Virus record (IMG/VR): IMGVR_UViG_3300050025_000126 | Span: 1 to 64,000 of that record | DNA from: a virus | DNA length: 64,000 nucleotides | Direction: 5' to 3' (one strand) | Part shown: positions 2,300 through 55,100 of the stretch, one piece after another | Position numbering within the stretch: position 1 is the stretch's first letter | Layout of the letters: each line of letters opens with the position of its first letter | Notes under the pieces: generated by a model | Databases searched by the model: none | What the model saw: the letters and a program-made list of their open reading frames with translations, nothing else | What the model was told of the DNA's origin: nothing | Made by a program: the position numbers and the translations under genes

Positions 2300-2337
2300 A
2301 CTTTAACATATTCCTAAACCAAGTCAACAACAATCTT
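2300..2337. promoter_or_regulatory. back-to-back early(-)/late(+) promoter junction
   Basis: Minus: TTGACT-16-TAAAGT; plus: CAATCTT; contains GTCAACAACAATCTT. Confidence 0.75.
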
Positions 2338-2368
2338 TCAAGGGATGGAGTCAAAGGGATAACGCACG

Positions 2369-4969
2369 ATGCCAGACATTAAGATCTCAGCTAGTCCCGA
2401 CGTGTCATCTTTCCGTTCGGTGGACAACCTCCTGAAGGGCCTTATTGTAACCGTTGATCGACTCAACGAGTCAATGAAAGGCCTGGGTAGCTCCATATCC
2501 AAGATCCAAACCGGTGGCATCCAACAAGGCAACGTCTCAGCTATCAAGACCCAAAAGCAAGACAAAGGAGGTGGCATTGGGGCAGTTATCCTTGGAGATA
2601 CAAGCGACATTCAGCAAAGGGCCAACAAGGTCCTGGCAGCTATTGAGTCTATTGATAGGGGTGTAAAGACCAAGGCCGGTAGTATTTCCCAAAGCGTTGC
2701 TTCAATTTCAACTTCCCTTAGGTCTGTTGGCAGCGGTGGTGGGGATGGGGATGCAAGTGACGTATTTGCCAGGAATGGAGCTGTAGGGGCAGCTCACCTT
2801 GGAGCCGGTGGCAGAGCTAGGCCTACAGCTCCCTCAGGCGCTCCTACAAATCAGATTGTACCATCTTTGTATCCTACGGCCAATAAACCCAGTTCTGGTG
2901 GAGGAGGTGGGGGAATAGGGATAGGGGGTCTTGTCGGAGGTGTGGCAGGAGGGGCAGAGGCTTTAATGTCTGGCAACATGAGTGGCTTCTTTGGCTCCAC
3001 ACTTGGTAGGTTGGGAGTGGCTGGAGCCGTTGCCTATGGGGCATATAGATTAGCCGATGCTGGTTCTGGGTATGCAAATAACGTAAGGTCGGCAAATCTC
3101 GACTACCAGGTCAACTTCCCCTTAACTCAGATGCAGACAACAGCAGATGCTATGGCCCCGTTTAAGCAAATAGGCAGAGACGGCTTGGGGTGGAACATCC
3201 TTGGAATGTCGGGGATGCGCGGAGCAATGCAGAGCGATGCATATAGGACTATTATAGATCCTGTAAAGCGTAAGGAGATGGTTGCTGCCAAGCTTAAGGA
3301 TTGGACCCTGTCTGGTAGATTGGCCAATGAATTTTCCGTTGCCGTAGATCCTCATGCCGGTAAATTGTTTGGGGCTGTGGTCAATGCCCTAGCTACCCCG
3401 ATGCCTTCTAATATTGGTGGGATGATTCCTATGGCTGGTATTACTTCGACCGCCTTGATAAACACGAGTGCTTCGAATGGGGATATCGCAAGGTATGATA
3501 TAGCTCGAAAGAAAGCTGAAGCCGAGGCCATTTCTGAATCAGCAGCTGGTATTGTGTCAGTTAAGGATAGTGTCATTAGGCAGAAGACATCCTTGGACGA
3601 GTATTATGAGAATGCTTTTTCTGGTGGTGGAGCTTTGAGCCGTGTAAAGACTATGAGGTCTTTTGGCAGAAGTACAGCTCCTATTAAGTTTAGGGATGGT
3701 TCTTCGGCTGAGGCTTATGAGTGGACCCAAGCGCAGGCGTTAGCCCAAGGGCGAGATTTTGGGGATATGGCTCAAGAATACCATCAGGTGCAATTAGGTA
3801 TTGGTAGAGGATATAACAAGGTCTTTGGTGGATATGGGGCTGTGTCAGCCGGGGAAGCTGGGTTTGGTAATATAACGCAGATTGCCAAGATTGCTGGTAT
3901 GATTACCGGTAGTACAGGTGGGGCAGGCACGATTATCGATAACATCCAAGGGATGACCAACGGTAAGAATGGTATTGATGTGGCCGTCAGTAGGGATTTG
4001 TTCCAAACATTAGCGCAGAATGCTTTGAATTCTGGAATGTCCGGTGCTAGTTCTTTCAACCAAGTTAATAGGATGGTGGGCACTTATGTGAGCGCCGGTG
4101 GATCAAATGTTGCCACACAGCAACGTAATGCTTACGGGTATGGGTTAGGTGGTCAATTAGAGCAATCTTATACTTCAGGGTCTAGGTCTCCTTTTGATAA
4201 GATTTCTTCTTGGCAAGATTCTATCTATGGTACTGGAGGCGTGTTTGATGGTGGAACAATAAGGTTGCAGGAGATGGGAGCTACAGACCCCAGACTATTG
4301 GCTTCTATTGCTTATGGTGGAGCCAAGGTCCCAACGTGGGCAGTCGGCCTTATTGATCAAAACTCAGCTAGAATCTACCTAGAACAATCACGTAAACGTC
4401 CATTTGCTACAGTTGTGGATGAGTTATGGGCTAACAGGCCTAAGCAGGCATCTATATTAAGCAAAATTCGTGAAGGTGGTGGAGACCCTAATTCTTTCTT
4501 TGAGAGTAGATTGAGTGGTTTAAAGCGGGGGAGTACCGAATGGTGGGAGGCTGAAGCCACTGCCGCTGAGGAAGCTGGAGGTATCTTGGGCGGCAACAAG
4601 ATGGCCAACGCCAAGATGTTGTCGGAGCAATATCTTAGGACGCAGACCTTAGACAGGCCTACTGGACCTGGTGCCCATTCGCCAGGGGCAGCTGATTATG
4701 AAGACATTGTATTAAAGAATGCTTCAATCTATCAAAAGGAAGTAGCCAAAGCGGCCAAGGCCAAAGGCGGGCCTCTTTCTGACAAAGCCAAAGATGATAT
4801 TGCTAAGGGGCTTCACCTCAAAGACCACCTAATGGCAGAAGAGGCTTTAAAGAGTGTTGGAGGAGACATACCCGCTTTGTCAGACGCTTTCGTAAAGGCG
4901 GCTTCTGATTTGGCTACTGCTATTAAGAGCAGGGCAGCCAAGAATCCTAGTACAGCAAGAGCACCATAA
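2369..4969 (+). CDS. tape measure protein-like
   Basis: 866 aa Gly/Ala-rich helical protein between chaperone-like genes and baseplate hub. Confidence 0.6.
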   Translation: MPDIKISASPDVSSFRSVDNLLKGLIVTVDRLNESMKGLGSSISKIQTGGIQQGNVSAIKTQKQDKGGGIGAVILGDTSDIQQRANKVLAAIESIDRGVKTKAGSISQSVASISTSLRSVGSGGGDGDASDVFARNGAVGAAHLGAGGRARPTAPSGAPTNQIVPSLYPTANKPSSGGGGGGIGIGGLVGGVAGGAEALMSGNMSGFFGSTLGRLGVAGAVAYGAYRLADAGSGYANNVRSANLDYQVNFPLTQMQTTADAMAPFKQIGRDGLGWNILGMSGMRGAMQSDAYRTIIDPVKRKEMVAAKLKDWTLSGRLANEFSVAVDPHAGKLFGAVVNALATPMPSNIGGMIPMAGITSTALINTSASNGDIARYDIARKKAEAEAISESAAGIVSVKDSVIRQKTSLDEYYENAFSGGGALSRVKTMRSFGRSTAPIKFRDGSSAEAYEWTQAQALAQGRDFGDMAQEYHQVQLGIGRGYNKVFGGYGAVSAGEAGFGNITQIAKIAGMITGSTGGAGTIIDNIQGMTNGKNGIDVAVSRDLFQTLAQNALNSGMSGASSFNQVNRMVGTYVSAGGSNVATQQRNAYGYGLGGQLEQSYTSGSRSPFDKISSWQDSIYGTGGVFDGGTIRLQEMGATDPRLLASIAYGGAKVPTWAVGLIDQNSARIYLEQSRKRPFATVVDELWANRPKQASILSKIREGGGDPNSFFESRLSGLKRGSTEWWEAEATAAEEAGGILGGNKMANAKMLSEQYLRTQTLDRPTGPGAHSPGAADYEDIVLKNASIYQKEVAKAAKAKGGPLSDKAKDDIAKGLHLKDHLMAEEALKSVGGDIPALSDAFVKAASDLATAIKSRAAKNPSTARAP

Positions 4970-6969
4970 TGGCGACTTCCCTTGATCCATTAAACCTATT
5001 AGGTAATGCCTATGACAATAGGTTTGTGGGTGTTGATGAGCTATTGCCTGGTGCTTTTAGTAAGCCTGAGAATAATATAACTGAAACGGTTCCCTTGCCT
5101 AAAATTGAGCAAGGGGTGGTATATGATGTAGGTAAGGACTATGGTAAAGAAGGCGAAACCGATCTTTCTTCAAGCCCCTCTTGGTGTATAGCTATATTCC
5201 GTTTGGGGACACCCGTTACCTATTCTAGATTTGAGTCTAAGTCGATATCTTCTGTGACCGTACTGGGCGGTGTCATTAGTAGAAAAGAGGCTCCTTTAAT
5301 TATTACTAGTGAATGTATACAGATGCAGGTTTCTTGCACCAAAGAGAGTTGTACTAAGACTCTTAACGCAACTTTAAAGGGCGATACCAACTACCTGTCT
5401 GCCAACACTGTTCTTCCTGGGGACTGGTTGATGGCATGGATGCATACTAATAGTAATGATACTAAAAGAATAATAAAGTCTTTACAAAGTGGTGCGGCTG
5501 CCAATGATTTTAACTCTGGTTTAAAGTTTGTCGGTAGGGTTCACGATATCAGGAAGAATCTTAGGGTAGACGCTAACGGAGCTAAGACTGTTACCTATAA
5601 CTTGCAAGGCGTAGGGTTTGATGAACTTTCCACTATGTTCTTTTATGATCCTGCTTTAGCTACAGCTGAGTCATTAACCGATATATGGCAGTTTTTGGCT
5701 CATATCAGTCAGGATATAAACGCCTGGATTAGCAAGGTTAGTCCTAGTGCTGGACAAATTAAAGACAACGCCGAGGCTTTGGTTGTTGGGTTTTTAGATT
5801 TGATAGTAGGTAAATCGACATCTTCAATTATCAATAGACCTGGGGCTAGAACCGGTCTTGACTCTGATTTGAAGGTTTCGCCTCAGGTAAGTGGAGAGGC
5901 ACCTTATGCATATTTAGTACCTGTAAGTGTAGCAACTACATTAGGCAGAACGATTGTCGATTCTAAAAAGGGCGACGGGTTCAGCCATCAAGCATTCGGA
6001 TACGCAGACCTGCTTACACTGCTGACGGGTGTTCAAAAGTATAAACCTGTCGATGACGAATTCCACCATGGGTTTGTGCCAGACAATATTGATTTTAGTA
6101 AATCGACCAAGGGCCGTCTTAGATGTTCAGATTCAATTAAAGGCACGTATATACCTATTGAGCAATGTTTTATCAATACTCCATTGTGGGGATTGTTGAA
6201 CCAGTTTAAGAACCCTACCATTAACGAGATGTACACTTGTATTAGGCCAGATGTTTTTGGCGATCTGATGCCAACGATTGTGTTTAGGCAAATGCCGTTT
6301 AGTTCTAACTCAATACAAGAAGACTCTTCCATGCCTTTGACCAGGTTTTTGGGCATGCCTAGGTGGAAGATACCAGCGGCTTTGATTACTAATTTAGATT
6401 TGGGTCGGTCCAATACCGCTCACTGGAATTTTATTCATGTTTACGGCAATCTAAACCTATATCATCCTGAGTCAGAAACCAGCATTGCTGCTCAAATGTT
6501 AAAAAACCCTCCCATTGCTGACTATGTTGATATGGCCAGATCGGGGATGAAACCGTTTATGTCTGTCGTATCTCAATCCATAGAGGACGCTTCTATTCCT
6601 GGTAGAGGTAGAAAGTGGATGGAGGCTATTGCTGATTGGACTATGGGCGTTCAGTTTACCTTGAACGGTACAGTAAATTGTTTTGGTATTCAAAGCCCCA
6701 TTGCAGAAGGCGACAATATCGAAGTAGACGGAATAGCTCTTCACATAGATAGTTTGACGCATAGCTGTGGAATTAACGGCAACTATAAATACTTCAATAC
6801 AACGCTTAATGTCACACATGGTATGCCCATAGACCAAGGTGAAGCTAGCCCAATTGCTCCTAGATACCCAGGCATGGCCCCAATCGTCTTTAGCAACGAT
6901 TTAAGGCAGTCTGGGGACGACAAGGTAGCAACTACTTATAACCCAGGGACGACGGTGGAGAAGGGCTAA
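4969..6969 (+). CDS. baseplate hub/tail protein
   Basis: 666 aa; KFVGRV…YNLQG N-terminal motif and C-terminal LNGTVNCFG…IDSLTHS…TTLNVTHG typical of hub (gp27/gp44-like) proteins; follows TMP. Confidence 0.65.
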   Translation: MATSLDPLNLLGNAYDNRFVGVDELLPGAFSKPENNITETVPLPKIEQGVVYDVGKDYGKEGETDLSSSPSWCIAIFRLGTPVTYSRFESKSISSVTVLGGVISRKEAPLIITSECIQMQVSCTKESCTKTLNATLKGDTNYLSANTVLPGDWLMAWMHTNSNDTKRIIKSLQSGAAANDFNSGLKFVGRVHDIRKNLRVDANGAKTVTYNLQGVGFDELSTMFFYDPALATAESLTDIWQFLAHISQDINAWISKVSPSAGQIKDNAEALVVGFLDLIVGKSTSSIINRPGARTGLDSDLKVSPQVSGEAPYAYLVPVSVATTLGRTIVDSKKGDGFSHQAFGYADLLTLLTGVQKYKPVDDEFHHGFVPDNIDFSKSTKGRLRCSDSIKGTYIPIEQCFINTPLWGLLNQFKNPTINEMYTCIRPDVFGDLMPTIVFRQMPFSSNSIQEDSSMPLTRFLGMPRWKIPAALITNLDLGRSNTAHWNFIHVYGNLNLYHPESETSIAAQMLKNPPIADYVDMARSGMKPFMSVVSQSIEDASIPGRGRKWMEAIADWTMGVQFTLNGTVNCFGIQSPIAEGDNIEVDGIALHIDSLTHSCGINGNYKYFNTTLNVTHGMPIDQGEASPIAPRYPGMAPIVFSNDLRQSGDDKVATTYNPGTTVEKG

Positions 6970-7117
6970 CCTTCCTTCGGAAGTAATCAACCGAAGTATC
7001 CTCTAGCTTTTGACCAATACAACAGTTAACCGGCCTCCATGTCTTGTCGTTTAACGAACAAAACTGATCTGTGTCTTTGATTCGTTCTCCCAATTTTAGC
7101 ATTCTGTATTCTGGCAT
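6932..7117 (-). CDS. single RRK-module protein
   Basis: PEYRMLKLGERIKDTDQF…W…IG…YFRRKV; AGGAG RBS. Confidence 0.75.
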   Translation of the reverse strand: MPEYRMLKLGERIKDTDQFCSLNDKTWRPVNCCIGQKLEDTSVDYFRRKVSPSPPSSLGYK

Positions 7118-7126
7118 GGTAGCTCC

Positions 7127-7351
7127 TTATTCATGTGGACAATATGAGATAGCTGTTCCATCATTTAGAACATCTATCACAAAGAAAGTGTTTGACGCAA
7201 AAGGATATTCATATACGGTGCTGTCCAGGACTTCTTTATCGTAGGCCATGTTTTCAACGACTTTGTACAGAGGCACCGAGTTAGTCAGCCCTGGGCGCTT
7301 TAACCTAGGCCGGTTCTTGCTTTTTAAAAATGTATTAAGAGAGCTTTTCAT
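7127..7351 (-). CDS. hypothetical protein, paralog of 54840-55040
   Basis: AAGGA RBS; shared MKxxLxxFL start and DVLxDGTAI[ST]YxP end. Confidence 0.7.
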   Translation of the reverse strand: MKSSLNTFLKSKNRPRLKRPGLTNSVPLYKVVENMAYDKEVLDSTVYEYPFASNTFFVIDVLNDGTAISYCPHE

Positions 7352-7374
7352 GTTTCCTTTGTTAAGTTTTTGAG

Positions 7375-7487
7375 TAAAAATTGCCAGGATTCACGCCTTA
7401 CCTGGCATGGCGCTTCCTTACTAGACTAAGCTCGGAAGGTGTTGGTGTTTTCCGTTGAAAAGTTCCGACAAATCAATCGACCAACAA
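7375..7487 (-). ncRNA. putative structured small RNA / attenuating leader
   Basis: Directly downstream of TTGACA promoter; stems TGTTGGT/ACCAACA, CTTCC/GGAAG and TGCCAGG/CCTGGCA followed by ATTTTT. Confidence 0.4.
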
Positions 7488-7492
7488 AACCA

Positions 7493-7531
7493 ATGGTATC
7501 ACGTTTCAGAAAACTGTCAAGTAGCAATCTT
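7493..7531. promoter_or_regulatory. back-to-back early(-)/late(+) promoter junction
   Basis: Minus: TTGACA-16-TACCAT with TG extension; plus: CAATCTT 6 nt before GTG 7538. Confidence 0.75.
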
Positions 7532-7537
7532 AAGTAA

Positions 7538-8455
7538 GTGCCAGAGACGATTCCTTCTATATACAGCGTGTCATCTATAGGTGGTGGCCATCATGGCGGA
7601 ACCTTACCCAACGACAATGTGCGTCTAAGATTTGGCGAAGTCAAGAGAGAAATCCTACCTAATAGTAAGGAGTCGTATTCCAAGCTGTACCGCGAATATG
7701 AAGTCTTAGTGCAGCATTATGAAGGCGGTTCTGCAACGCACCGCATGTATCATCACTGCATGGTGTTAAACTCTCTTTGCGGCCTTGGAGACCATTCGGA
7801 TATGGCCCTTAGGACCTCTGATAAACCAGACTTTCATTTGGGCAATGGCTCTAGGGTGTTCTTGTTGTGTGTAGAAGGGAACGACGCTAGGGCAATTATA
7901 ATTGGTGGACCACAGCAAAGGTTGGATGATTCTCCAAAAGGGTTGCACAAGGAATTAGAATACAATGGCGTCAACCTTCAAATCAATGATGATGGGTCTT
8001 GGACGTTGGTTAACAAGGGCAAGACTAATTCAGACGGCTCTATGAGTGATAAGGCGGATAGTGAAGGTGCAGGGACAACTGTAAAAGTAGAGTCTAATGG
8101 TAATTTTATTGTTAATACCCAGAATGGTAAATGTATTATCAATGTGAACCACAAGTCAGGCGCTATTGACGTTCAGGCCTCGGATACTATTACTATTAAA
8201 ACTACTAATGTTTCGGTTGAGGCCGATACAATTGATTTGAAGTCAACCTCTACTAATATCAATTCTGACTCTGTTGGCGTTGGCTCTAATGCCGTTTCCC
8301 CTGCGGTCCTTGGAGACAAACTTGCCGCTATCTTAAGTGAAGCCTTTGGAGTCATTGGACCTACATTACCTACATCTCCACAACAAGCCGCTGTAGCCGC
8401 CGCCGCAGCTCAACTTGTTACCGCATTGTCTTCCTCAGTTAGGGTGGCTCAATAA
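7538..8455 (+). CDS. baseplate central spike (gpV/gp5-like)
   Basis: N-terminal OB-fold-like GSRVFLLCVEGND…IIG; C-terminal beta-strand repeats and AVLGDKL. Confidence 0.7.
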   Translation: MPETIPSIYSVSSIGGGHHGGTLPNDNVRLRFGEVKREILPNSKESYSKLYREYEVLVQHYEGGSATHRMYHHCMVLNSLCGLGDHSDMALRTSDKPDFHLGNGSRVFLLCVEGNDARAIIIGGPQQRLDDSPKGLHKELEYNGVNLQINDDGSWTLVNKGKTNSDGSMSDKADSEGAGTTVKVESNGNFIVNTQNGKCIINVNHKSGAIDVQASDTITIKTTNVSVEADTIDLKSTSTNINSDSVGVGSNAVSPAVLGDKLAAILSEAFGVIGPTLPTSPQQAAVAAAAAQLVTALSSSVRVAQ

Positions 8456-13365: not shown

Positions 13366-13403
13366 ATAATATCATTTTCCCAGGTTTTGTCAACATCAAT
13401 CTT
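13366..13403. promoter_or_regulatory. back-to-back early(-)/late(+) promoter junction
   Basis: Minus: TTGACA-16-TATTAT; plus: CAATCTT 6 nt before GTG 13410. Confidence 0.75.
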
Positions 13404-15971: not shown

Positions 15972-16273
15972 TCTCTAAAACTTGCAGCAAGTGCCATTTC
16001 ACTAAGGATGTTGAAGATTTTTGTAACGACAAAAATAGAAAGGATGGGAAATACCCCCAATGTAGATCTTGCCGCAGCGATGGGTCTAAAAGTAGGAGCA
16101 AGAGCAATTCGGCAAGAGAGTTAATCACCGTACCCGTAGAGAAAAGATGCCCAAAGTGTAAATCCGTAAAAACCAGCGACCAGTTTGATAGATGTAGAAG
16201 CAAACCGGACGGACTCAAGGGCATCTGCAAGGTATGCTGTCGGGATTGGGTAAATTTAAAGACAATCCGTTAG
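15968..16273 (+). CDS. two Zn-ribbon repeats, truncated homing-endonuclease-like protein
   Basis: KTCSKC…CRSC and KRCPKC…CKVC; no nuclease domain. Confidence 0.6.
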   Translation: MISKTCSKCHFTKDVEDFCNDKNRKDGKYPQCRSCRSDGSKSRSKSNSARELITVPVEKRCPKCKSVKTSDQFDRCRSKPDGLKGICKVCCRDWVNLKTIR

Positions 16274-16312
16274 CCTTACAAGGAGTTATTAATTATTTAA
16301 AGAAGCACGACC

Positions 16313-17023
16313 CTACTTTGCTTTCCTGCGGAAGCGATAAGTTGGTTGCTCCTTGACCTTGTAGCCCTCAAAGCCGTCGTTTATAGCTATGTTAAACCAG
16401 CCCCTAGTTACAGAATCATAAGCTTGGTCTCCCTTGCGAACGACTTCATTGTTCTTCAAGGTGCGGTACTTGGGCTCTGGCTTCTTGACTGGTGGTGTTG
16501 TGATTAGACGGCGCCTGGACCTTTCAGCCCCCTGCTGTTGGTTGGTTGTTTTACCAACTTCAACAGACGGTCGCCATCCAAGGCCGGTAATTACTTCGTC
16601 GCCCTTTTCTACAACGTCTCCATCAACCAAGTAGTAATAATGCGGATCGTTAGCTCCTGGTATCTTTACATTTGGGTAGACTTCTTCCTTGGGCTCTTCG
16701 ACAAGGGCCAATTCATTAATCTGAAACATTCCAACCGTTGCGTCATCTGCGCTTGCATATTTAATTGCCTTCTTTACAATTGGGTCCGGGCGGTAGCAAA
16801 GGTTCTTGTGCCAGTGACCGGGGATGTCTTTACCTACTGAACAAACATGCAGCTCGGCATCGTCTTGAACTACAGTCTTCGCCTTTTTGTCTATATACAA
16901 ATAAAGGTCCGTTTCTTGAAGGATTTCTCCCGCCTTAAGAAACCTTCCTGGTGGCAAAACTTGCTTGTGCTTCTTTCCGTTGATGTCTGTGTATCGATGG
17001 TACTTCTTGGTTGCTTGCGTCAT
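16313..17023 (-). CDS. RRK-module protein (3 modules)
   Basis: LPPGRFLKAGE…YRP; YYYLVDGDVVEKGDE…RRRL; KYRTLKNNEVVRKGDQ…FRRK. Confidence 0.8.
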   Translation of the reverse strand: MTQATKKYHRYTDINGKKHKQVLPPGRFLKAGEILQETDLYLYIDKKAKTVVQDDAELHVCSVGKDIPGHWHKNLCYRPDPIVKKAIKYASADDATVGMFQINELALVEEPKEEVYPNVKIPGANDPHYYYLVDGDVVEKGDEVITGLGWRPSVEVGKTTNQQQGAERSRRRLITTPPVKKPEPKYRTLKNNEVVRKGDQAYDSVTRGWFNIAINDGFEGYKVKEQPTYRFRRKAK

Positions 17024-17304
17024 TAATATCTCCTCGGGTCATAAAGGGTTTCTCGAATCTTTAGATATGAAAGTCTACCACAACCTGGGCACGTATGGCA
17101 ATGAACTTCGCCTTGCTTTAGACAAATCATTGAAGGCGGGTTGTGGTCTGGATGGGAACAGGGGCGACAATCCCATTTAATGGGCTTTGGGTCAGAGGGT
17201 CCATCGGGTCTTGTGAAGGGGCCTTTTACACCATTAGCTATTTCTTCATACGAAGGCAGCTCTGGTACGCCATTCTTACCGTGGGTTTGCTTGAGTGGGT
17301 TCAT
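17023..17304 (-). CDS. hypothetical Cys/His-rich protein
   Basis: CSHPDHNPP…HTCPGCG; overlapping stop/start with neighbours. Confidence 0.6.
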   Translation of the reverse strand: MNPLKQTHGKNGVPELPSYEEIANGVKGPFTRPDGPSDPKPIKWDCRPCSHPDHNPPSMICLKQGEVHCHTCPGCGRLSYLKIRETLYDPRRY

Positions 17305-17543
17305 TGGTCTAAATACTCCTGCGAATAGTCTTTATTGGGAAAAACGAAATCTGCTAATTTTATCCAAAGGTTGACGATTTTAGTGTCATCTATCTTTATG
17401 TTTGGTCTTATAAAATCTGTGTCTATCCAGGAGATTATTACCACAGGGATAAGCGTCACCGCTAAGGCGCAAGCCCCTAAAACCTGTGCAACAAACTTAC
17501 TAACATATTTTAAGATACTTAGTGTTAATCTTCCGCGTTTCAT
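17301..17543 (-). CDS. small membrane protein
   Basis: One hydrophobic segment; ATGA overlap; AGGA RBS. Confidence 0.55.
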   Translation of the reverse strand: MKRGRLTLSILKYVSKFVAQVLGACALAVTLIPVVIISWIDTDFIRPNIKIDDTKIVNLWIKLADFVFPNKDYSQEYLDQ

Positions 17544-17552
17544 TTCGATATC

Positions 17553-18362
17553 CTACTTCATCTTCGACGCTACATCTACGAAGAAGCTCGTACCACCAAT
17601 AGGCTTAACCCATGCACGCAAGGCCCCTCCGAAGCAGCAGCCGCCGTCGCAAGCAATGGTATTGTTTAGAACCTGCGGCTGCCAGTAGACAGCGTGCCCA
17701 AAACACACCGTCCATCGTCCATCCCAATAGTGATACCAGGGATAAGAACCTTCCGGTACCCACCACACGTCGTCAATTTCTATGCTTTTTACTGGAGTAA
17801 GGCGATTATCCTTGACATTCCTGGTAAAGTATCTGTTGCGTATGAATGCGTTAACTTCTTGCTTGAACAAAGAAGGAGCCAGGCCTGCATGTAGACATAC
17901 CACGTCATAGGGTTCCTGGGTGCCTTCCTTTGTAAAATACACCGCATGAGGACAAGAAGCCATAAACTCCAGGCTTGAATGTGACAGCTGGTTGTAAGAT
18001 GGCGGGCAGCGCATGGGAATTTTGTAAGACGGGTCCAAAAGGTTCTTGAGAACGTGGTAGTGGTATCTTGTATGCTTAGAATCGTGGTTCCCGACGACGC
18101 AATACGTTGGACTAGTTGCAGCATATTCTTTAACGAATTGCACCACACCTTCAGGGTCTGGGCCGCGATCTACCAGGTCCCCAAGCAACACAACCGAATC
18201 GTCCATAGTAGGCTTTAACTTGTCCCAAAGCTCCTTAAGCTCCTCTAGACAGCCATGGACGTCCCCAATTGCAATTACCCTACCCTTAGGCATGGGCAAA
18301 TGCTTTACAATTACGGTTTTAGATGCTTTGAATTGGGTTGGGTCAGTCATGGGGTCTTTCAA
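17553..18362 (-). CDS. calcineurin-like metallophosphoesterase (PPP/ApaH-like)
   Basis: GDVHG, GDLVDRG, GNHD, HAG, FGH and DGGC motifs. Confidence 0.9.
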   Translation of the reverse strand: MKDPMTDPTQFKASKTVIVKHLPMPKGRVIAIGDVHGCLEELKELWDKLKPTMDDSVVLLGDLVDRGPDPEGVVQFVKEYAATSPTYCVVGNHDSKHTRYHYHVLKNLLDPSYKIPMRCPPSYNQLSHSSLEFMASCPHAVYFTKEGTQEPYDVVCLHAGLAPSLFKQEVNAFIRNRYFTRNVKDNRLTPVKSIEIDDVWWVPEGSYPWYHYWDGRWTVCFGHAVYWQPQVLNNTIACDGGCCFGGALRAWVKPIGGTSFFVDVASKMK

Positions 18363-18630
18363 GTTCTCTAATCATAAAGGCAATCGCCCCAGAAGTCCAG
18401 GTAAAGGAATCGCAAGTCATTTCAGCTAGATAATTTCTAGAGAATCTAGCACAATATTTCCTAGCAGTCTTTAAGCCATACTCATTAAAAAGGATTAACC
18501 ATGCTGTTGTCATGGCGCTTTTCCCGTACCAACCCCACGATGCGTCTTCACCTGAAGCGATTGTGTATCCTTTGCTTGTTACGGTTCTGGCACCGTCCCT
18601 AGTCGAAAATCTGTAAACATTAGACTCCAT
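18343..18630 (-). CDS. hypothetical protein (DUF6166-like)
   Basis: SWGWYGKSAMTTAWLIL motif; leaderless after promoter TTGACA-17-TAATAT at 18637-18665. Confidence 0.5.
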   Translation of the reverse strand: MESNVYRFSTRDGARTVTSKGYTIASGEDASWGWYGKSAMTTAWLILFNEYGLKTARKYCARFSRNYLAEMTCDSFTWTSGAIAFMIRELERPHD

Positions 18631-18648
18631 ATATAAATATTAGCCTAC

Positions 18649-19206
18649 TTATACTTCGGTGTCAATATTAAAATGCTCGATATTGTGTTCCCGGCAAAAG
18701 CGATTGAGCTTCAAAACGTTGTCTGTGTCATTCAGGCGTTGATACATGCCTCGAATGGTCTTTTCGGGAACCTGGTGGACGTTGCGCTTTAAGGAGGTTT
18801 CGACGCTGATGTTTAGCGTTACGATTACGGTTTTGTAGCCATATGCGTCGGCAATCTTAACGTAATGCGAAAACTCTGATATAGTGGTGTTGGTGTTGTC
18901 GAGGAAGATGCAGGAGTACTTAATTATATTCCACACTCCATTATATAGAGGTGGCCAGTACCCCTGGACACAACTGATAAAACGCCTTAGGCAAGATTGG
19001 TGAGCGAGGCCAATCATAGAGCGGTCAAAGTTATAGGTCCCGGCCTGAATAAAATAACTATCAGCGCTACAATCATTGTACGGGCCTGTAGTTCTTGAAT
19101 ATATCATTTGCTCAATCGTGCTCTTCCCCGCCCCAGGAATTCCTCTCAAAATGAAGACGGTTGGCTTATCGAATTTGACTTGCTGCAAAAATTCTTCTTT
19201 GGTCAT
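18649..19206 (-). CDS. P-loop kinase (AAA_33, N4BP2/PNK-like)
   Basis: LRGIPGAGKST Walker A, CSADSYF, LDNTN, RNVHQVP; likely start ATG 19206. Confidence 0.85.
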   Translation of the reverse strand: MTKEEFLQQVKFDKPTVFILRGIPGAGKSTIEQMIYSRTTGPYNDCSADSYFIQAGTYNFDRSMIGLAHQSCLRRFISCVQGYWPPLYNGVWNIIKYSCIFLDNTNTTISEFSHYVKIADAYGYKTVIVTLNISVETSLKRNVHQVPEKTIRGMYQRLNDTDNVLKLNRFCREHNIEHFNIDTEV

Positions 19207-19207
19207 T

Positions 19208-19936
19208 TTAACCCTTATTGATTTGGCGGCGGTAGACGTCAGCTTTAAAAGTCTTGGCGTTAGTATACCCACTCTTTACCCATTGCTTTCCCCGGAGGTA
19301 TTCGTCTCCTTCCAGGATAACTTCGCCTACGTTCAAAAAGATATAGCATGGGCGATTGACATTAGCAACCTTTTCTTCCTTCACCGGTTGCGTGATCTTG
19401 CGGCGGCAATGACCTACATTGTTCTCCCACAGGGTGTTACCGTCCCACATACCCTGAACCTTCCACCCACCATTCCCGATATTCCATTCGTCAGTTCCTC
19501 GGATCTTGTCTCCCTCTTGGAGGTAATAGTAACCGTTGTTCTTGGCAGGCTTTTGTTTGACTTCAGGCGTCTTAACTTCTACCTTGCGGCGAACGACGAA
19601 GCGCTCACTATAAGTAGAGGCCTCCTTTCCGATTTGGCTGGAGCAACCCATCCAAAAGGCCTCACTGGCGCTAGGGGCAACCTTATAATTAAATTCGTCG
19701 CCCTTTTTAACAATTTCATCGGGCTTCACAACGCGGTAGCCCTTGCCTACATTAAGAGTCTTGACGCGCTTGGCCTTAGACTTGATGGGGCGGCGGTAAC
19801 GGCAGGCTTGGCTATCGTCCAGAACAACTCCTATCATGCTAAGGCACTCTTCATAAATCCCATCAGAACCGGCCCATTCATCGCCCTTACGAATGGTGTC
19901 ACCAGCGGTCAATGTCTTGTATTGTTTGTTTGCCAT
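19208..19936 (-). CDS. RRK-module protein (4 modules)
   Basis: Leaderless ATG 19936 seven nt after -10 box; four GDE…RR[KPQ] modules. Confidence 0.8.
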   Translation of the reverse strand: MANKQYKTLTAGDTIRKGDEWAGSDGIYEECLSMIGVVLDDSQACRYRRPIKSKAKRVKTLNVGKGYRVVKPDEIVKKGDEFNYKVAPSASEAFWMGCSSQIGKEASTYSERFVVRRKVEVKTPEVKQKPAKNNGYYYLQEGDKIRGTDEWNIGNGGWKVQGMWDGNTLWENNVGHCRRKITQPVKEEKVANVNRPCYIFLNVGEVILEGDEYLRGKQWVKSGYTNAKTFKADVYRRQINKG

Positions 19937-19943
19937 GGAAGAC

Positions 19944-19981
19944 ACTTTATCATATTCAGAAACGAAGTCAACAACAATCTT
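19944..19981. promoter_or_regulatory. back-to-back early(-)/late(+) promoter junction
   Basis: Minus: TTGACT-16-TAAAGT; plus: CAATCTT 6 nt before ATG 19988; identical 15-mer. Confidence 0.75.
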
Positions 19982-19987
19982 ATGTGT

Positions 19988-24265: not shown

Positions 24266-24304
24266 ACCTTAGCTCAGGAGCCAAAACAAGTCAACAACAA
24301 TCTT
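24266..24304. promoter_or_regulatory. back-to-back early(-)/late(+) promoter junction
   Basis: Minus: TTGACT-17-TAAGGT; plus: CAATCTT 6 nt before GTG 24311; identical 15-mer. Confidence 0.75.
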
Positions 24305-27862: not shown

Positions 27863-27894
27863 TGAATACCAATCTTAAGATGGAGAACGAATAA

Positions 27895-31919: not shown

Positions 31920-31957
31920 ATCTTAGCACGTTATAAAAAGATGTCAACAACAATCTT
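31920..31957. promoter_or_regulatory. back-to-back early(-)/late(+) promoter junction
   Basis: Minus: TTGACA-16-TAAGAT, ATG 7 nt later; plus: CAATCTT, ATG 6 nt later; identical 15-mer. Confidence 0.8.
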
Positions 31958-31963
31958 TAAGCT

Positions 31964-37033: not shown

Positions 37034-37103
37034 ATACTAACATATCTTAAAAAGTTGTCAATACTTTATTTTAGGTTGACTTTAAATTAAAGTATGGTAA
37101 GAT
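37034..37103. promoter_or_regulatory. divergent pair of sigma70-type promoters
   Basis: Minus TTGACA-16-TAGTAT; plus TTGACT-16-TAAGAT with ATG 37112 eight nt later. Confidence 0.75.
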
Positions 37104-37111
37104 GGTTGGTC

Positions 37112-44820: not shown

Positions 44821-45198
44821 TTGCAGACATATTATCACATCGGGTTTTTAAGTCAAGAAGTAATCTTAGGGGTAGGAAAGGCGGGTAGCCAAATCATAAT
44901 CCCTTCAGATGAAATTGTGTCCAAAAGCATCGTAGGAAAACTTGGGAACAAGGTCCTATGGGCGGTTTCAACCATTGGAGGACTTTTTCTAGTAGAATCT
45001 AGATCTCCAGACGGGTCCAAAACTGTCTTAGGAGCTGGTTCGCACCGAGGTGTCGCTCGCATGGTGGCTAAAAGACTACAGCCCGATATCGAATGGACGG
45101 TTTTAGAGAAAAACCAAGAAATTGATGAACGCGATGTCGAAGATATTTTACCGTTCTGGATTCAAGTCGTAGAGATGGCCCAAAAGAAACTAAGCTAA
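44821..45198 (+). CDS. hypothetical late protein (true start uncertain)
   Basis: ORF abuts 45199; annotated TTG lies upstream of the late motif. Confidence 0.5.
   Translation: MQTYYHIGFLSQEVILGVGKAGSQIIIPSDEIVSKSIVGKLGNKVLWAVSTIGGLFLVESRSPDGSKTVLGAGSHRGVARMVAKRLQPDIEWTVLEKNQEIDERDVEDILPFWIQVVEMAQKKLS
44829..44867. promoter_or_regulatory. back-to-back early(-)/late(+) promoter junction
   Basis: Minus: TTGACT-16-TAATAT; plus: TAATCTT. Confidence 0.65.
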
Positions 45199-46507: not shown

Positions 46508-47278
46508 TTACGACACCTTGCGGCGGAAGCGTCTCCCCGGAGTGGTGCTACCGGTGCAACTTGGCCAAATAACAGGAATATAACCAACAGAAGCCTTCAC
46601 CTTCTTCCATCCGCGCTTACACGTATAATACTGGTCATTTTCCTTAATAACCTCTGTAGGCTCCAATTCTCGATACTTAGAGGCCTTCTTTGCTGGCTTC
46701 TTTTCAACCACATCTACCAATTCCAACTCATGGTCGGCATACTTAGGCGTATCTCCTCCGACTACCAAAACAAAGTTGCGCCATGATTCTGGGGCGTCTT
46801 TCTCTAGGACCTTAAAGACCTTACCAATTTCGCCCTTGCGTCCTGCGTGAAGAATCTTGACACTTTGACCAACCTTGAACTTGGTTTCAACGGGCTTAAC
46901 AATCTTGCGGCGACACCGACCTGCGTTACAAGCTGACAAGTGTTCTGTTCCCGGCTGCGTACAACCGTGGTCATAGGTATGCCACTCCTTATGGTCGTCT
47001 GTCCACTGATCTCCTTTTTGAATGACGTCGCCCACCTTCAAATAATAGTAATCATTATTGGTAGGGTCTGGGCGGTACCAGTTCCGACAAATCTCTTCAT
47101 CCCGCAGAACGTTATTGCCAACATTCCTAGAAATGACCGGCTCTGACTTGGCATACTTGTAGAGCCAAAGGTCGCCTTCCTTGATAACATCTCCATACTT
47201 AAGGAAGCGTCCTGGGGGCAAAACTTCTCGTACTTGCTCTGTCTTGGTGATTTCGCGGGTCCACACATGTTCGTTCAT
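46508..47278 (-). CDS. RRK-module protein (3 modules + KOW-like domain)
   Basis: LPPGRFLKYGD…YRP; YYYLKVGD…CRRKI; FKVGQSVKI…GEIGKV; KYRELEPTE…FRRKV. Confidence 0.85.
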   Translation of the reverse strand: MNEHVWTREITKTEQVREVLPPGRFLKYGDVIKEGDLWLYKYAKSEPVISRNVGNNVLRDEEICRNWYRPDPTNNDYYYLKVGDVIQKGDQWTDDHKEWHTYDHGCTQPGTEHLSACNAGRCRRKIVKPVETKFKVGQSVKILHAGRKGEIGKVFKVLEKDAPESWRNFVLVVGGDTPKYADHELELVDVVEKKPAKKASKYRELEPTEVIKENDQYYTCKRGWKKVKASVGYIPVIWPSCTGSTTPGRRFRRKVS

Positions 47279-47305: not shown

Positions 47306-47344
47306 ATAATACCAAAGGTTCGTAGGCGAGTCAACAACAATCTT
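47306..47344. promoter_or_regulatory. back-to-back early(-)/late(+) promoter junction
   Basis: Minus: TTGACT-17-TATTAT; plus: CAATCTT; identical 15-mer. Confidence 0.75.
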
Positions 47345-47354: not shown

Positions 47355-48107
47355 ATGTTACCGTCATTTTTCAAGGAAATTTTAGGAGAGCAAGGCGCCT
47401 CAGTAATGATGCAATTGGCCAAGACGTCTAAAGAGCTTGGGGCCTATCTTACTCCTCGCATCATAGTTAGCTGGCTTAGGCAATCTGAATATGGGGCTAT
47501 GCCTATTCCCGCTGGTTGCCCTCTTACTTCTTTGACTAAAAACGGATACGGCTATTCTGGCACAAGCAATATCCTAGGTCAAGATTATTCTTTTAAAAAT
47601 TCATCGGAAGAACACATTGCAGCAGTTATTGCAGTTGCGTCAAATCAGAAGATAGAGCCGGTCGAGGTCAAAGATGTCGACCTAGCGAGACTAGCTAAAA
47701 CCATTGACCTATTGTGTAAAATTGCTTTAAAGGCTCCTAACGACCAACACGAACGCACCCAGACCGCCTCTAATATCCAGCCCGAAGAGCCTATCCAACC
47801 AGTCCTAAAGCAACCTGCTCAGAATCAAACCAAGACGCCTGTTAAGAGTAGAATCCCTAAGATAAAGAAGCCGTTAGTTAATATTCAAAAGCCCTTGAAG
47901 GTAACCAAGAGCGAATCGGAGAGTCTTTGTTTGGTGTGTGGCGGCAAGATGTTTCAAAAGGGTATTTTCGTTGGTTGCACTTGTTTTAAGCCGATGGCCA
48001 AGAGCGTGAAGACTTCTGTAAGTGGTGGTGGGTATTTACTTACGTTTGATGATGAGTGGGATATGGACGCACATTTAGCTTTGATTGGAGCTTTGAAACG
48101 TGGATAA
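47355..48107 (+). CDS. hypothetical late protein with C-terminal CxxC…CxC
   Basis: ORF after late motif; VTKSE and MAKS motifs. Confidence 0.55.
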   Translation: MLPSFFKEILGEQGASVMMQLAKTSKELGAYLTPRIIVSWLRQSEYGAMPIPAGCPLTSLTKNGYGYSGTSNILGQDYSFKNSSEEHIAAVIAVASNQKIEPVEVKDVDLARLAKTIDLLCKIALKAPNDQHERTQTASNIQPEEPIQPVLKQPAQNQTKTPVKSRIPKIKKPLVNIQKPLKVTKSESESLCLVCGGKMFQKGIFVGCTCFKPMAKSVKTSVSGGGYLLTFDDEWDMDAHLALIGALKRG

Positions 48108-48584: not shown

Positions 48585-49565
48585 ATGTCGCTCTCAGAAA
48601 CTCCAACGTTTAAAACATGTCCAGACTGTAAAACAAAGAAGCCAAGTTCCGCCTTTAACAAAAATGGAAACAAGCTTCAAGACTATTGTAAAGACTGTCA
48701 CTCAAAACGTCAAAAAGCCTCACGCGAAAAAAACAGCAATAGAAAGAACATTGTAATACCAGATTTTAAAACATGCTCTAACTGTGGCGTTGAAAAACCG
48801 TCTTCATGTTTTTGTAGGTCTAGGGGCAATAGAAGCGGCCTTGGCTCTTTTTGTAAGGACTGTCAGTCCAAACACCAGAAGCGCTCATACGGGAAGAACA
48901 AAGCTAGAAAGTATATTTTAATCCCAGACTTTAAGACATGTCCGGGATGTAACATAGAGAAACCGGGTTGTGTTTTTGGGCAATCTAGGGGCTCGAAGGA
49001 TGGACTTGGTGTATACTGCAAGGTATGCTCGGCTATTCATAACAGAAAGCGTAGATACGGTGTCACGGAAGAGTGGTACCAGGCAATCTTACTCGCACAA
49101 AATTACTCTTGTGCTATTTGTAAAACCAAGACACCTGGTGGTAAGGGCACTTGGCACACAGACCACAACCATTTAACGGGTGAAGTTCGCGGACTGTTAT
49201 GTAACAACTGTAATTCGGCAATCGGTTGTTTTAAAGATTCTACCTTTTTAATCGATAAAGCAATTAAATATCTAAGCCTTCCTATGTCGGGTATTGTCTA
49301 CAAAAAAGCTTCGGCTAAAAACATAAGTGCCGCATTTTTAAAGGCCCAAAACGGTTTGTGTAAAGTCTGCCTAACTGACCTATCTATAAAGGGCTCTTGT
49401 TTAGACCACTGTCACTTAACTGGAATAGTTAGAGGCTGTCTTTGTAGATTTTGTAATTTAGGGTTAGGGCGTTTTGGGGATTTTGGGGATTCAGCATCAG
49501 TAATGCAAAGTGCTATCGAGTATCTAATTAAGTTTGAATCCCTTAAGGTCGCTCCGAAAGTTTAA
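48585..49565 (+). CDS. endonuclease VII-family homing endonuclease with tandem nuclease domains
   Basis: Three FKTCxxC Zn ribbons; two CxxC…DHxHxTGxVRGxLCxxCN domains. Confidence 0.85.
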   Translation: MSLSETPTFKTCPDCKTKKPSSAFNKNGNKLQDYCKDCHSKRQKASREKNSNRKNIVIPDFKTCSNCGVEKPSSCFCRSRGNRSGLGSFCKDCQSKHQKRSYGKNKARKYILIPDFKTCPGCNIEKPGCVFGQSRGSKDGLGVYCKVCSAIHNRKRRYGVTEEWYQAILLAQNYSCAICKTKTPGGKGTWHTDHNHLTGEVRGLLCNNCNSAIGCFKDSTFLIDKAIKYLSLPMSGIVYKKASAKNISAAFLKAQNGLCKVCLTDLSIKGSCLDHCHLTGIVRGCLCRFCNLGLGRFGDFGDSASVMQSAIEYLIKFESLKVAPKV

Positions 49566-49701
49566 TAACCTCCGCGTACCTCTTAGCTGTCATCTTTTTG
49601 CCCTTAGCTAATCCTAGGGCTAATAGGTGTCGTTCTTGCCGCCTACGACGTTCAAGAGTAGGATTAGAATTCTTGAACCGTGTTCTGGTGCGCTTAGACA
49701 T
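49543..49701 (-). CDS. small basic protein
   Basis: MSKRTRTRF…; AAGGA RBS. Confidence 0.45.
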   Translation of the reverse strand: MSKRTRTRFKNSNPTLERRRRQERHLLALGLAKGKKMTAKRYAEVIKLSERP

Positions 49702-50674
49702 TAGTCTTATCCTTGCTGTACCATTCTGTGCGAGCCTTGACTGCACCATCAAAGGCCTTAAGGCAATTCGCTAGATACTTGGCCAAAATATAATCCGGTG
49801 TGTCACTGCCGTTTTCGAGGGTATACTTCTTAATAAGCAGCTTTAGCTCATGGGTGAAGGTAGTTGACTTTTCTTCTACTTTGGATTCTACTGGCTTGAC
49901 GTCTGGAATTGTGGTCTCCTTCTTTACCACACTAGTAATCTTGCGACGATAACGGTCTCCCCCTTTCCCAAATCCCGAATCTCCTACTTTGGCATTGTAA
50001 GGCGTATAATGTCCTGAGGACCCCATCCAGTCGTCACGACGGTATTCAAACTGGTCTCCTTCAATCAACTTCTCCCCAATGTCCAAATAGCGATGCGTTG
50101 CGTCTTGCATACGAATAGGACGACGAATCTCTCCATTCTTTACCCAACTCTTCCCTACAACCATGCCATGCGCCCCAGGGCTAGTAACGGCTTCCCACAC
50201 GCCCCTATTATTCTTCCACTGGTCAGTAGTCGTAGTCGCTACTTCGCCCTCTGCAAGAATACGATATTCAATCTTTTCAACCGGTTTAGCTACAGGTTCA
50301 GAGGTCTTAACCTCAACAACAGGCTTGGTAACTCGCGGGCGACGGTATTGGGCCTCTAGAATGTCTTTCTTTTCTAGAGCTTCCCCGTAAGACGACACAA
50401 TCTTTTGCCACTCCTTTTGATTCCTACACCGGTATTCGTCACCCTTACGCAGCTTGTCACCAGTGCGTAGCTTGATGTAGGGCGAAAGAGTCTTTGGCAC
50501 AGGACGGCGAAACCGGAATCGCAATACTCCACTGTTTTTCCACTTGTTGGGAGTGTTGATTCCATCTCCGGTCCACTTATTTACATCTTCCCACTTATCC
50601 TTAAATGGGTATGCCCACTGGTCTCCAAGCTTAATGGCTTCGTCTGCTCCTAAAATTCTATACTTTGTCTTCAT
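49694..50674 (-). CDS. RRK-module protein (4 modules + C-terminal helical phage domain)
   Basis: Four modules; C-term ELKLLIKKYTLENGSDTPDYILAKYL. Confidence 0.8.
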   Translation of the reverse strand: MKTKYRILGADEAIKLGDQWAYPFKDKWEDVNKWTGDGINTPNKWKNSGVLRFRFRRPVPKTLSPYIKLRTGDKLRKGDEYRCRNQKEWQKIVSSYGEALEKKDILEAQYRRPRVTKPVVEVKTSEPVAKPVEKIEYRILAEGEVATTTTDQWKNNRGVWEAVTSPGAHGMVVGKSWVKNGEIRRPIRMQDATHRYLDIGEKLIEGDQFEYRRDDWMGSSGHYTPYNAKVGDSGFGKGGDRYRRKITSVVKKETTIPDVKPVESKVEEKSTTFTHELKLLIKKYTLENGSDTPDYILAKYLANCLKAFDGAVKARTEWYSKDKTNV

Positions 50675-51093: not shown

Positions 51094-51879
51094 TTAATTT
51101 GAGGAAAGGTCAAGGTTTAAGTTTTTGTATATCAGTTTTACCAGTTCTAAGAAGTCCTCATAAGACATAGCCAACTTGGCGCGATTGCATCTTCCACAAC
51201 AGGAAACACAATTATCGATCTCGTAACCCTTAGAGTTATCTTTTCTGTCTATACCATTGTAGATGTATATTGATTTTTCTATGCCTCTAGCGGTTACGGT
51301 ATTTCCGCTTGATTTAATTATTTGTGAGGGCTCTTTCCCGCAATACCAACACGGCTGCTTTGACAGCCATTTGATGTCGTCAATGCCTAAAGAAAACGTC
51401 AGACTACGTCTTATAGCGTTAGCTTTATAGCTTCGACACAGCCTACGGAAGCTGGATTCTCCATCTGGAAGAGTCCAATTTGCCATTCTATTACAGCCAC
51501 AAGATATTCTTCGCCCTTTTCTTAAACAAAAACCAGTTACTAAGACTTCTTTGCCGCAAAAACACTGACAAATCCATTCGTATGATTTTTGGGAAGATTT
51601 TGATTGACCTATTACTTTAAGATATCCAAAAACAGATCCTATCTTTATAGGTATTTTGTTCTGTTTGCCAACCTTTCTCATTGTTTCAGATTTAATACAT
51701 CCACAAGAGGTCCTTTTATGATCTCTTAGGCTTTTGCTTGTAGCCTCTAACGTTTTATCACTACCACACTCACACCTGCAAAGCCACAGTATTTTATTGC
51801 GGGCAGACCTCTTACCGGTTTTATTTAAAACCCTAAGACGACCATATAGATGTCCTGTAATATCTATTTCAGGTGGCAT
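51094..51879 (-). CDS. HNH homing endonuclease
   Basis: Two GxLxV…WxCxCxCG…SCGC repeats; NGIDRKDNSKGY…NCVSCCGRCNRAK. Confidence 0.85.
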   Translation of the reverse strand: MPPEIDITGHLYGRLRVLNKTGKRSARNKILWLCRCECGSDKTLEATSKSLRDHKRTSCGCIKSETMRKVGKQNKIPIKIGSVFGYLKVIGQSKSSQKSYEWICQCFCGKEVLVTGFCLRKGRRISCGCNRMANWTLPDGESSFRRLCRSYKANAIRRSLTFSLGIDDIKWLSKQPCWYCGKEPSQIIKSSGNTVTARGIEKSIYIYNGIDRKDNSKGYEIDNCVSCCGRCNRAKLAMSYEDFLELVKLIYKNLNLDLSSN

Positions 51880-54839: not shown

Positions 54840-55040
54840 TCAATTAAGCCACGGATAATAAGTAATGGCCGTTCCATCTTCTAGAACGTCCACAAACCAT
54901 GATTCTTCCCCTGGGTTTACGTCACGTAATACGCCAGCGGTCTTGTCAGATACAATCGCATCCAACATTTTGGCCCCAGGAAGACATCCTCCGTTGAAGC
55001 CAAGCTCTCCGTTCAAAAAGTTCTTTAGATTTGCTTTCAT
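54840..55040 (-). CDS. hypothetical protein, paralog of 7127-7351
   Basis: WFVDVLEDGTAITYYP vs FVIDVLNDGTAISYCP. Confidence 0.7.
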   Translation of the reverse strand: MKANLKNFLNGELGFNGGCLPGAKMLDAIVSDKTAGVLRDVNPGEESWFVDVLEDGTAITYYPWLN

Positions 55041-55062
55041 ATGTTTCCCTTTCGATTTTGTA

Positions 55063-55100
55063 ATTGTATCATATTTTTAAACCACGTCAACAACAATCTT
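55063..55100. promoter_or_regulatory. back-to-back early(-)/late(+) promoter junction
   Basis: Minus: TTGACG-16-TACAAT; plus: CAATCTT 7 nt before ATG 55108; identical 15-mer. Confidence 0.75.

Follow-up and report, generated by a model that had tools for sequence, protein, structure and literature searches.

A repeated 15-mer at divergent gene junctions of a peat myovirus probably joins an early and a late promoter

Why does one short sequence recur where leftward accessory genes give way to rightward structural genes in the tail region of a large uncultured phage? The DNA analyzed here, called the window, is the first 64 kb of the IMG/VR viral contig IMGVR_UViG_3300050025_000126 (107,276 bp; G000 in the comparisons below). 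A first-pass annotation had placed a minus-strand -35 box within 3-4 nt of a plus-strand (C/T)AATCTT motif at nine minus-to-plus switches, and had suggested either an early/late switch or an insertion site. Sequence statistics and conservation in relatives supported its picture of back-to-back promoters that share bases. We consider it likely, with a probability of roughly 0.7, that the 15-mer GTCAACAACAATCTT is a composite two-way promoter joint that belongs to the accessory cassette. Read on the minus strand, its first bases would serve as the TTGACn -35 box of a promoter of the ordinary sigma70 type used by the host, from which the accessory ("early") cassette would be transcribed leftward. 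In the plus-strand direction, the final 12 bases would form a late motif, consisting of a -10-like AATCTT and an upstream AAYAV extension without a -35 box. This arm would restart the rightward structural operon, often as a leaderless mRNA, and its presumed reader would be a sigma-like factor of the phage or of the host.

The GTCAA that opens the element starts at 2323, 7516, 13389, 19967, 24290, 31943, 44852, 47330 and 55086, as the first-pass annotation had it. Six of these sites (2323, 19967, 24290, 31943, 47330 and 55086) are identical copies of the 15-mer, against 0.00 expected in the window from 100 dinucleotide shuffles. The whole contig holds eight exact copies, the additional two at 70160 and 79310, all on the plus strand and none on the minus strand, making it the most repeated 15-mer of the genome. 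Three variants, at 7516, 13389 and 44852, complete the nine window sites, and 11 fused sites are present genome-wide. GTCAA and (C/T)AATCTT are separated by 3 nt at seven sites of the window and by 4 nt at the other two, 7516 and 44852, and every fused site lies in a minus-to-plus gap with a minus gene on its left and a plus gene on its right. The proposal that the element marks each cassette boundary was overstated, since nine of the ten divergent junctions in the window are marked and the junction 36998|37094 has no late motif. At a further junction near 75983, outside the window, the late motif is present and the early -35 box is weaker (GCAAG). The late motif without the GTC also occurs between co-directional plus-strand genes. 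The ten divergent junctions of the window are as follows.

2300..2337: joint 1, with minus-strand -10 box TAAAGT at 2300-2305, -35 box TTGACT at 2322-2327 and late motif AACAACAATCTT at 2326-2337; the minus gene 2092-2292 is predicted to be leaderless, starting 7 nt past the -10 box, and the plus gene starts at 2369.
7493..7531: joint 2, the 4-nt variant GTCAAGTAGCAATCTT, with -10 box TACCAT and -35 box TTGACA; the plus gene has its GTG at 7538, 6 nt past AATCTT.
13366..13403: joint 3, variant GTCAACATCAATCTT, with -10 box TATTAT and -35 box TTGACA; the minus gene 12808-13338 has a leader and an AGGAGA ribosome-binding site, and the plus gene, for a baseplate protein, has its GTG at 13410, 6 nt past AATCTT.
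19944..19981: joint 4, with the left 36 nt identical to joint 1 at 27/36 positions; the minus gene is predicted to be leaderless, and the plus gene 19982/19988-20716 encodes an HNH/EndoVII-like endonuclease.
24266..24304: joint 5, with a predicted leaderless minus gene 23482-24258 and a plus gene with GTG at 24311.
31920..31957: joint 6, in a 51-bp gap with predicted leaderless genes on both strands (31912 and 31964).
44829..44867: joint 7, variant GTCAAGAAGTAATCTT, with a predicted leaderless minus-strand open reading frame of 40 codons at its left.
47306..47344: joint 8, which together with the minus gene 46508-47278 forms an 847-bp block absent from the related contig G004.
55063..55100: joint 9, ahead of a baseplate-like gene of 2313 amino acids with ATG at 55108, 7 nt past AATCTT.
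37041..37104: the exceptional divergent junction, with two sigma70-type promoters (minus -35 box 37056-37061, plus -35 box 37076-37081) and no late motif.

The plus gene past joint 7 (44867-44900) has no obvious start: the ATG of a relative aligns with ATC, and the only in-frame TTG is upstream of the promoter.

All 11 fused sites carry TTGACn, a spacer of 16-17 nt and TAnnnT on the minus strand, with TG immediately before the -10 box at several of them. Promoters of this TTGACn/TAnnnT type number 42 genome-wide (13.8 +/- 4 in shuffles), 33 of them on the minus strand, and a separate promoter scanner also called 2327, 7520, 13393 and 19971. Its -35 and -10 hexamers keep within the 16-18 bp spacing typical of sigma70-type promoters and precede a gene on the same strand, so that the minus arm has the form of such a promoter and would be expected to act as one. 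At 2323, 19967, 24290, 31943, 44852 and 79310, the minus-strand ATG lies 6-7 nt past the -10 box, and the messages from these six genes are predicted to be leaderless. Leaders with a ribosome-binding site of AGGAG type were found at 13389, 47330, 55086 and 70160, and the minus-side leader at 7516 is about 135 nt long.

The plus-strand motif (C/T)AATCTT is strongly biased in orientation (62 on the plus and 19 on the minus strand). Seventeen of the 62 plus-strand copies lie within 40 nt upstream of plus-strand starts, compared with 1.2 expected (p = 1e-15). When the contig is taken together with its relatives, start codons lie most often 6-7 nt past AATCTT, a sharp peak of about 22 cases that all lack a ribosome-binding site; at the remaining sites the spacing is 14-27 nt and GGAG intervenes. 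The short spacing without a ribosome-binding site fits a promoter that starts about 7 nt after a -10-like hexamer, and AATCTT retains the A at -11 and the T at -7, the two key positions of a -10 box. The genes behind the motif encode sheath, baseplate, head and virion proteins (PHROGs). It is because these downstream genes are structural that we call the promoter late, a reasonable label that is drawn from gene content. The co-directional copies in the window are:

27865..27876, plus strand: late motif without GTC ahead of the tail sheath gene, followed by a GGAG site and ATG at 27895; the motif is found at the same place in four relatives.
25978, 32279, 37724, 40285, 40867, 41395 and 46027: similar co-directional late-motif sites.

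The co-directional sites share the consensus AA(C/T)A(A/G/C)CAATCTT, and nothing is conserved farther upstream. AACAACAATCTT thus appears to be the phage's own promoter motif for structural genes, of a type that consists of a -10 element without a -35 box. Two other roles for the motif were considered and rejected. An RNA-processing site does not fit, as the motif heads operons in divergent gaps where no upstream plus-strand transcript is possible; where the gap shrinks to as little as 51 bp, no other conserved plus-strand element precedes the operon, which argues for a promoter rather than a processing signal. A substitute ribosome-binding site does not fit either, as the motif also lies at variable distance upstream of ordinary GGAG sites. 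The motif AAYAV-CAATCTT, mostly leaderless, is previously undescribed. It belongs to an uncultured clade of peat and permafrost myoviruses distantly related to Myxococcus phage Mx1, and could help to place gene starts and to assign timing classes when related metagenomic contigs are annotated.

One further gene touches on the use of the late motif. A homologue of ClpP or of head-maturation proteases is encoded at genome positions 84995-85567 on the minus strand, among replication genes and without a late motif upstream. Unless this homologue has no role in the head, some late genes must be transcribed from a different promoter.

The relation of the two arms was assessed by setting 25 late motifs from divergent gaps against 26 that lie between genes of the same direction, in the contig and six related contigs. 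GTCAA at an offset of 3-4 nt accompanied 24/25 of the divergent motifs and 0/26 of the co-directional ones (Fisher p = 1e-13); within G000 alone the fractions were 11/12 and 0/11 (p = 1e-5). The co-directional consensus indicates that the late motif includes the AA that is the TT of TTGAC on the other strand, so that two base pairs are shared, and G1 and C3 of the 15-mer would belong to the minus promoter only. When start sites were predicted 7 nt after each hexamer, they lay 51-52 bp apart at 11/11 sites. Counted from the late start, the early -35 box then spans positions -22 to -17; counted from the early start, the late hexamer spans about -45 to -40. By this geometry the two polymerase footprints overlap, as the first-pass annotation had anticipated, and the arms would exclude each other. 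If they do, the element would be a minimal, regulator-free early/late switch that is present in many copies per genome.

Conservation was examined in relatives with sheath proteins 68-76% identical to that of the window phage (L118, L037, L119, G001/L120, L121 and L122) and in G004, a related contig of 57 kb with a baseplate protein 67% identical. All seven keep the exact 15-mer or the 4-nt variant at divergent junctions; the orthologue of joint 5, for instance, is kept in L118 and is present as the 4-nt variant in G001. In more distant relatives (G002, G003 and L125-L127; 35-48% sheath identity) the motif is absent, and no comparable repeated 10-mer was found. An exact scan of IMG/VR for the 15-mer returned at least 116 single matches, mostly due to chance, and three of these contigs later turned out to be relatives. 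The left 36 nt beside the modules are mostly unrelated to each other, with a mean of 12/36 identical positions compared with 9 for random 36-mers (random maximum 22). The 15-mer is thus kept while its flanks diverge, which indicates that it is held by selection and not only by recent copying. There are exceptions: 2323 and 19967, with their 27/36 identical positions, adjoin paralogous genes; 25872 and 33726 of G001 agree at 30/36; and the counterparts of 31943 in L037 and L118 agree at 26-28/36, although the adjoining genes there are different.

Alignment of the relatives showed that the cassettes are not invariant, and the idea of insertion at these sites survived a comparison that invariant cassettes would have decided against it. 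G004 lacks cassette and joint at the equivalents of 1839|2369, 6969|7538 and 46507|47355, where the window holds a minus gene and a joint in each case. The orthologues that flank these junctions lie close together in G004: 19 nt separate those of 1345-1839 and 2369-4969, an overlap (TAATG) joins those of 4969-6969 and 7538-8455, and TTG alone stands between those of 46055-46507 and 47355-48107. A search of IMG/VR with 47355-48107 found no relatives. Conversely, between its orthologues of 24311-25369 and 26009-27862, G001 carries a minus-strand cassette of 5 kb that ends in the 15-mer, whereas no cassette is present there in the window.

For the junction 6969|7538, a metagenome scan added six contigs, so that eight relatives could be compared over the stretch 6970-7537. 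The site is empty in 6/8 of them, including the three closest (76-80% identity). The only other filled site, in L147, holds an unrelated minus gene, and its promoters are not fused. In a maximum-likelihood tree of the downstream protein, G000 is sister (support 97/96) to a clade in which all sites are empty, and more empty contigs lie outside this pair. Gain of the 568-bp block in the G000 lineage would be the most economical reading. The late promoter is absent from 6/6 empty versions of the site, indicating that the late arm arrived with the cassette. These comparisons contradict the earlier proposal that cassettes are seeded upstream of pre-existing late promoters, as no such promoter is present at two of the three empty sites of G004 or at the six empty versions of 6969|7538.

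Variation is also seen elsewhere in the tail module. After the tail-tube gene, the window has a 200-residue member of the paralogue family described below, L037 a 137-residue paralogue, L118 a 35-residue remnant followed by an unrelated plus gene, and G001 a beta-solenoid protein. In two regions, G004 has a member of this family one gene to the left of its position in the window. Near-identical DNA was found in DNA assemblies of peat, permafrost and lake metagenomes, and there were no RNA runs carrying this DNA among the public runs listed. At the strain level, independent peat and permafrost contigs jump or end at the edges of cassettes. They skip 15978-16294 (depth 10; an HNH fragment missing in a near-identical strain from another peat sample) and 15977-16955. 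Contigs also diverge into unrelated sequence just past the tube gene, at 30927 and 30969, with the flanking late genes covered. A contig joining 23378 to 31941, which ends 2 nt before a 15-mer, was set aside, as one side measured only 20 nt and the depth was 2.4.

Taken with the proposed structure of the element, these data suggest how insertion might work. An antisense early gene would be placed in the few bases between two late genes and would bring its own early promoter; the inserted cassette would also supply a late promoter for the genes downstream. Because the cassette would bring this promoter with it, the tail module can be fragmented and should still be expressed. More speculatively, and with considerable doubt on our part, the joint may be a portable insertion adaptor with a built-in timer, which would allow antisense accessory genes to be inserted without silencing late genes downstream. 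Sigma70 and late polymerase would compete for the same ~50 bp, switching the cassette off as the late operon switches on, and the module, sometimes with free-standing HNH endonucleases, would drive the turnover of accessory genes across the peat phage clade. The composite-joint reading in itself gives a testable rule for how a large phage could scatter accessory genes related to host takeover or defence through its essential structural operons and leave these operons functional: each insert would bring a restart promoter.

Several points weigh against the composite-joint reading. The late arm has no evident reader: in a search of the 107 kb for sigma factors, TIGR02937 and PF04542 gave one weak 11-bit match (98093-98209). 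PHROG scans of 20 minus-strand proteins gave no sigma factor, the absence of which is not established as the contig is about 65% complete. A phage RNA polymerase was likewise not found in the 107 kb of this partial contig. Both timing classes, early as well as late, are assigned from gene content. The element is not always kept, as a decayed joint, GTCAACTAAAATCGA, is present in G004. The promoter need not always travel with the cassette either, since the empty 1839|2369 site of G004 holds a late promoter, TTTGACAACAATCTT, the sole case that fits a pre-existing target. At the left, convergent borders of the cassettes we found no shared motif or hairpin; several of them abut the stop codon of the neighbouring gene, and no mechanism of insertion is visible.

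Among the alternatives, an operator function survives best, though we regard it as unlikely. The 15-mer would then mainly be the binding site of a phage-encoded regulator that sits on the early -35 box and recruits polymerase to the late promoter, a role that may coexist with that of a composite joint. The precedent is the region of phage phi29 with early promoters A2b/A2c and late promoter A3, where p4 and p6 are the regulators; the binding sites of p4 overlap the -35 boxes of A2b/A2c, and p4 activates A3 (PMC3100819). The A2b/A3 pair appears to be the closest functional analogue of the hand-over from early to late transcription at divergent promoters. In both systems, divergent early and late promoters share a control region, and the late promoter lacks a good -35 box. 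In phi29, binding over the early -35 box is linked to activation of the late promoter; here geometry alone matches, and no p4-like or other regulator was identified. The phi29 region is also a single one that extends over ~200 bp with known regulators, unlike the approximately 11 copies per genome found here with starts 51-52 bp apart. A hint of additional constraint comes from the bases between GTCAA and CAATCTT, which are less variable at divergent sites (CAA at 17/25) than at co-directional sites (TAG, TAC and CAA mixed). This bias could equally distinguish strong promoters at operon heads from weaker internal ones. The element has no dyad symmetry and no second half-site, and to judge from position, the late motif works without the GTC at the ~26 co-directional sites.

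A second alternative is that the 15-mer is primarily a target for recombination or homing, either cut by an enzyme or used for short-homology exchange between copies, with promoter activity being secondary. Gain, loss and exchange of cassettes do occur exactly at the element, its copies all point the same way, and a few modules are alike over ~55 bp (2323 and 19967; 25872 and 33726 of G001). In addition, at least five genes or gene fragments of HNH/EndoVII-like type are present, several of them at cassette borders:

15968-16273: HNH/EndoVII-like, at a cassette edge.
19982-20716: HNH/EndoVII-like, directly after the 15-mer.
48585-49565: HNH/EndoVII-like, at a cassette edge.
51094-51879: HNH/EndoVII-like, at a cassette edge.
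79331-79957 (genome coordinates): HNH/EndoVII-like, directly after the 15-mer.

In G001, such a gene directly follows the 15-mer at 12501. Repair driven by homing endonucleases is a plausible engine for moving cassettes, judged from these gene positions. Nevertheless, we consider it quite improbable that the 15-mer is the target itself. No inserted block has a copy of the element at each end, and the left borders of the blocks share nothing. The empty sites at 6969|7538 and 46507|47355 hold no copy to recombine with, and 15 bp is short for homologous exchange. No integrase or transposase is encoded in the cassettes, and no recombinase, flanking repeat or circle was found in the assembled contigs, the only material searched. 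Finally, the sequence is fully explained by two promoter consensuses.

That the arms are independent promoters lying side by side because divergent gaps are very short, with offset and identity as by-products, is very unlikely: several gaps do measure only 51-76 bp with both genes predicted leaderless and little room, but the 3-4 nt offset is kept where space is ample (the ~135-nt minus leader at 7516, plus leaders of 31-40 nt at 2323 and 70160) and at 24/25 divergent sites in six contigs despite diverged flanks, and the unfused arrangement in L147 shows that fusion is not forced.

The composite-joint reading can also be set against promoters and mobile genes known from other phages. The late promoters of T4 (TATAAATA) are read by gp55 together with gp33 and the gp45 clamp. 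They resemble the plus arm in having only a -10-type box, without a -35 box, ahead of myovirus structural genes. They differ in sequence, the motif here being AAYAV-CAATCTT and not TATAAATA; no gp55-like factor was found in our contig, and many of its transcripts are predicted to be leaderless. Lambdoid morons are self-contained accessory genes with their own promoter, which lie between genes of late operons and are variably present among relatives. They usually carry their own terminator and supply no promoter for the host operon downstream, unlike the insert considered here, which is predicted to restore late transcription through its second promoter arm.

The closest described system appears to be the promoter-early stem-loop (PeSL) cassettes of T4-type phages, in which accessory genes are shuffled at recurring early-promoter motifs (Arbiol et al., 2010, PMC2839356; Comeau et al., 2014, PMC4122927). 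Both systems have a short conserved motif with a strong sigma70-like early promoter, repeated in plastic regions of accessory genes without assigned function. In both, insertions, deletions or replacements between relatives end at the motif, here at the right border only. PeSLs, however, pair the promoter with a terminator stem-loop and lie between co-directional early genes. In our case there is no conserved hairpin by the element, and terminator-like sites are at the level of shuffled sequence (18 vs 18.5). The partner is an opposite-facing late promoter, the cassettes interrupt late structural operons in antisense orientation, and invariance is limited to 15 bp.

In the bidirectional bacterial promoters outlined by Warman et al. 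(bioRxiv 10.1101/2020.01.31.928960), inherently symmetric key elements coincide on opposite strands and are shared by divergent starts. As far as that outline goes, the likeness is that promoter elements of opposite strands coincide and one short stretch drives divergent transcription. The difference is that here two promoter classes with non-symmetric elements are combined, and they overlap only where the -35 box of the early arm meets the upstream AA of the late one. Since its arms use different elements, the joint is not a bidirectional promoter of the symmetric type outlined there. What is specific to the present element is the fusion of two different promoter classes in an invariant 15-mer, and the direct evidence for its gain along with a cassette.

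Among the cassettes themselves, a dispersed family of paralogues stands out:

16313..19937, minus strand: the largest early cassette of the tail region, with six open reading frames, including paralogue members 16313-17023 and 19208-19930.
46508..47278, minus strand: a single-gene early cassette, a member of the paralogue family.
2092-2292, 12808-13338, 16313-17023, 19208-19930, 31310-31912, 35796-36998, 46508-47278 and 49694-50674, minus strand: the dispersed paralogue family.

The family is built from repeated modules of the type PGRxL..GD..GDL...YRRP and has no Pfam match. Five members adjoin joints (2092-2292, 12808-13338, 19208-19930, 31310-31912 and 46508-47278), which fits duplication of the gene together with the module, and members also adjoin joints in G004, L037 and L122. 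The cassette 16313..19937 is flanked by HNH-like genes or fragments (15968-16273 and 19982-20716), with the strain-level deletions at its left edge. Another minus-strand protein (22857-23474) consists of beta-solenoid repeats of the YdcK type. Related phages carry it more than once and with different numbers of repeats, as at 28613-29494, 31681-32469 and 38513-39043 of G001, and many short metagenome contigs match its repeats.

The contig as a whole is classed as linear in IMG/VR, with a completeness of ~65% estimated by CheckV and a guanine plus cytosine (GC) content of 45%. It encodes a contractile tail, with sheath, baseplate and head or virion proteins recognized through PHROGs. The only GenBank phage match for the sheath protein was Myxococcus phage Mx1 (41%), and a blastn query of GenBank phages with the gene for the 2313-residue protein gave no match. 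Beyond the window, an island of ~60% GC extends over 2.5 kb (genome 70500-73000; L141:6500-9000). It spans the 3' part of the plus-strand open reading frame 70214-71593 and an overlapping plus-strand frame of 543 amino acids, just downstream of the joint at 70160. The island resembles a segment for a distal tail fibre or for receptor binding that was gained by horizontal transfer, and possibly points to a host of higher GC content. Within the late gene set, the 721-residue plus-strand protein encoded at 20717-22882 has an N-terminal domain similar to mCpol/Cas10 palm domains (Pfam PF18182, E = 2e-12), and its orthologues in L118 and G001 are shorter.

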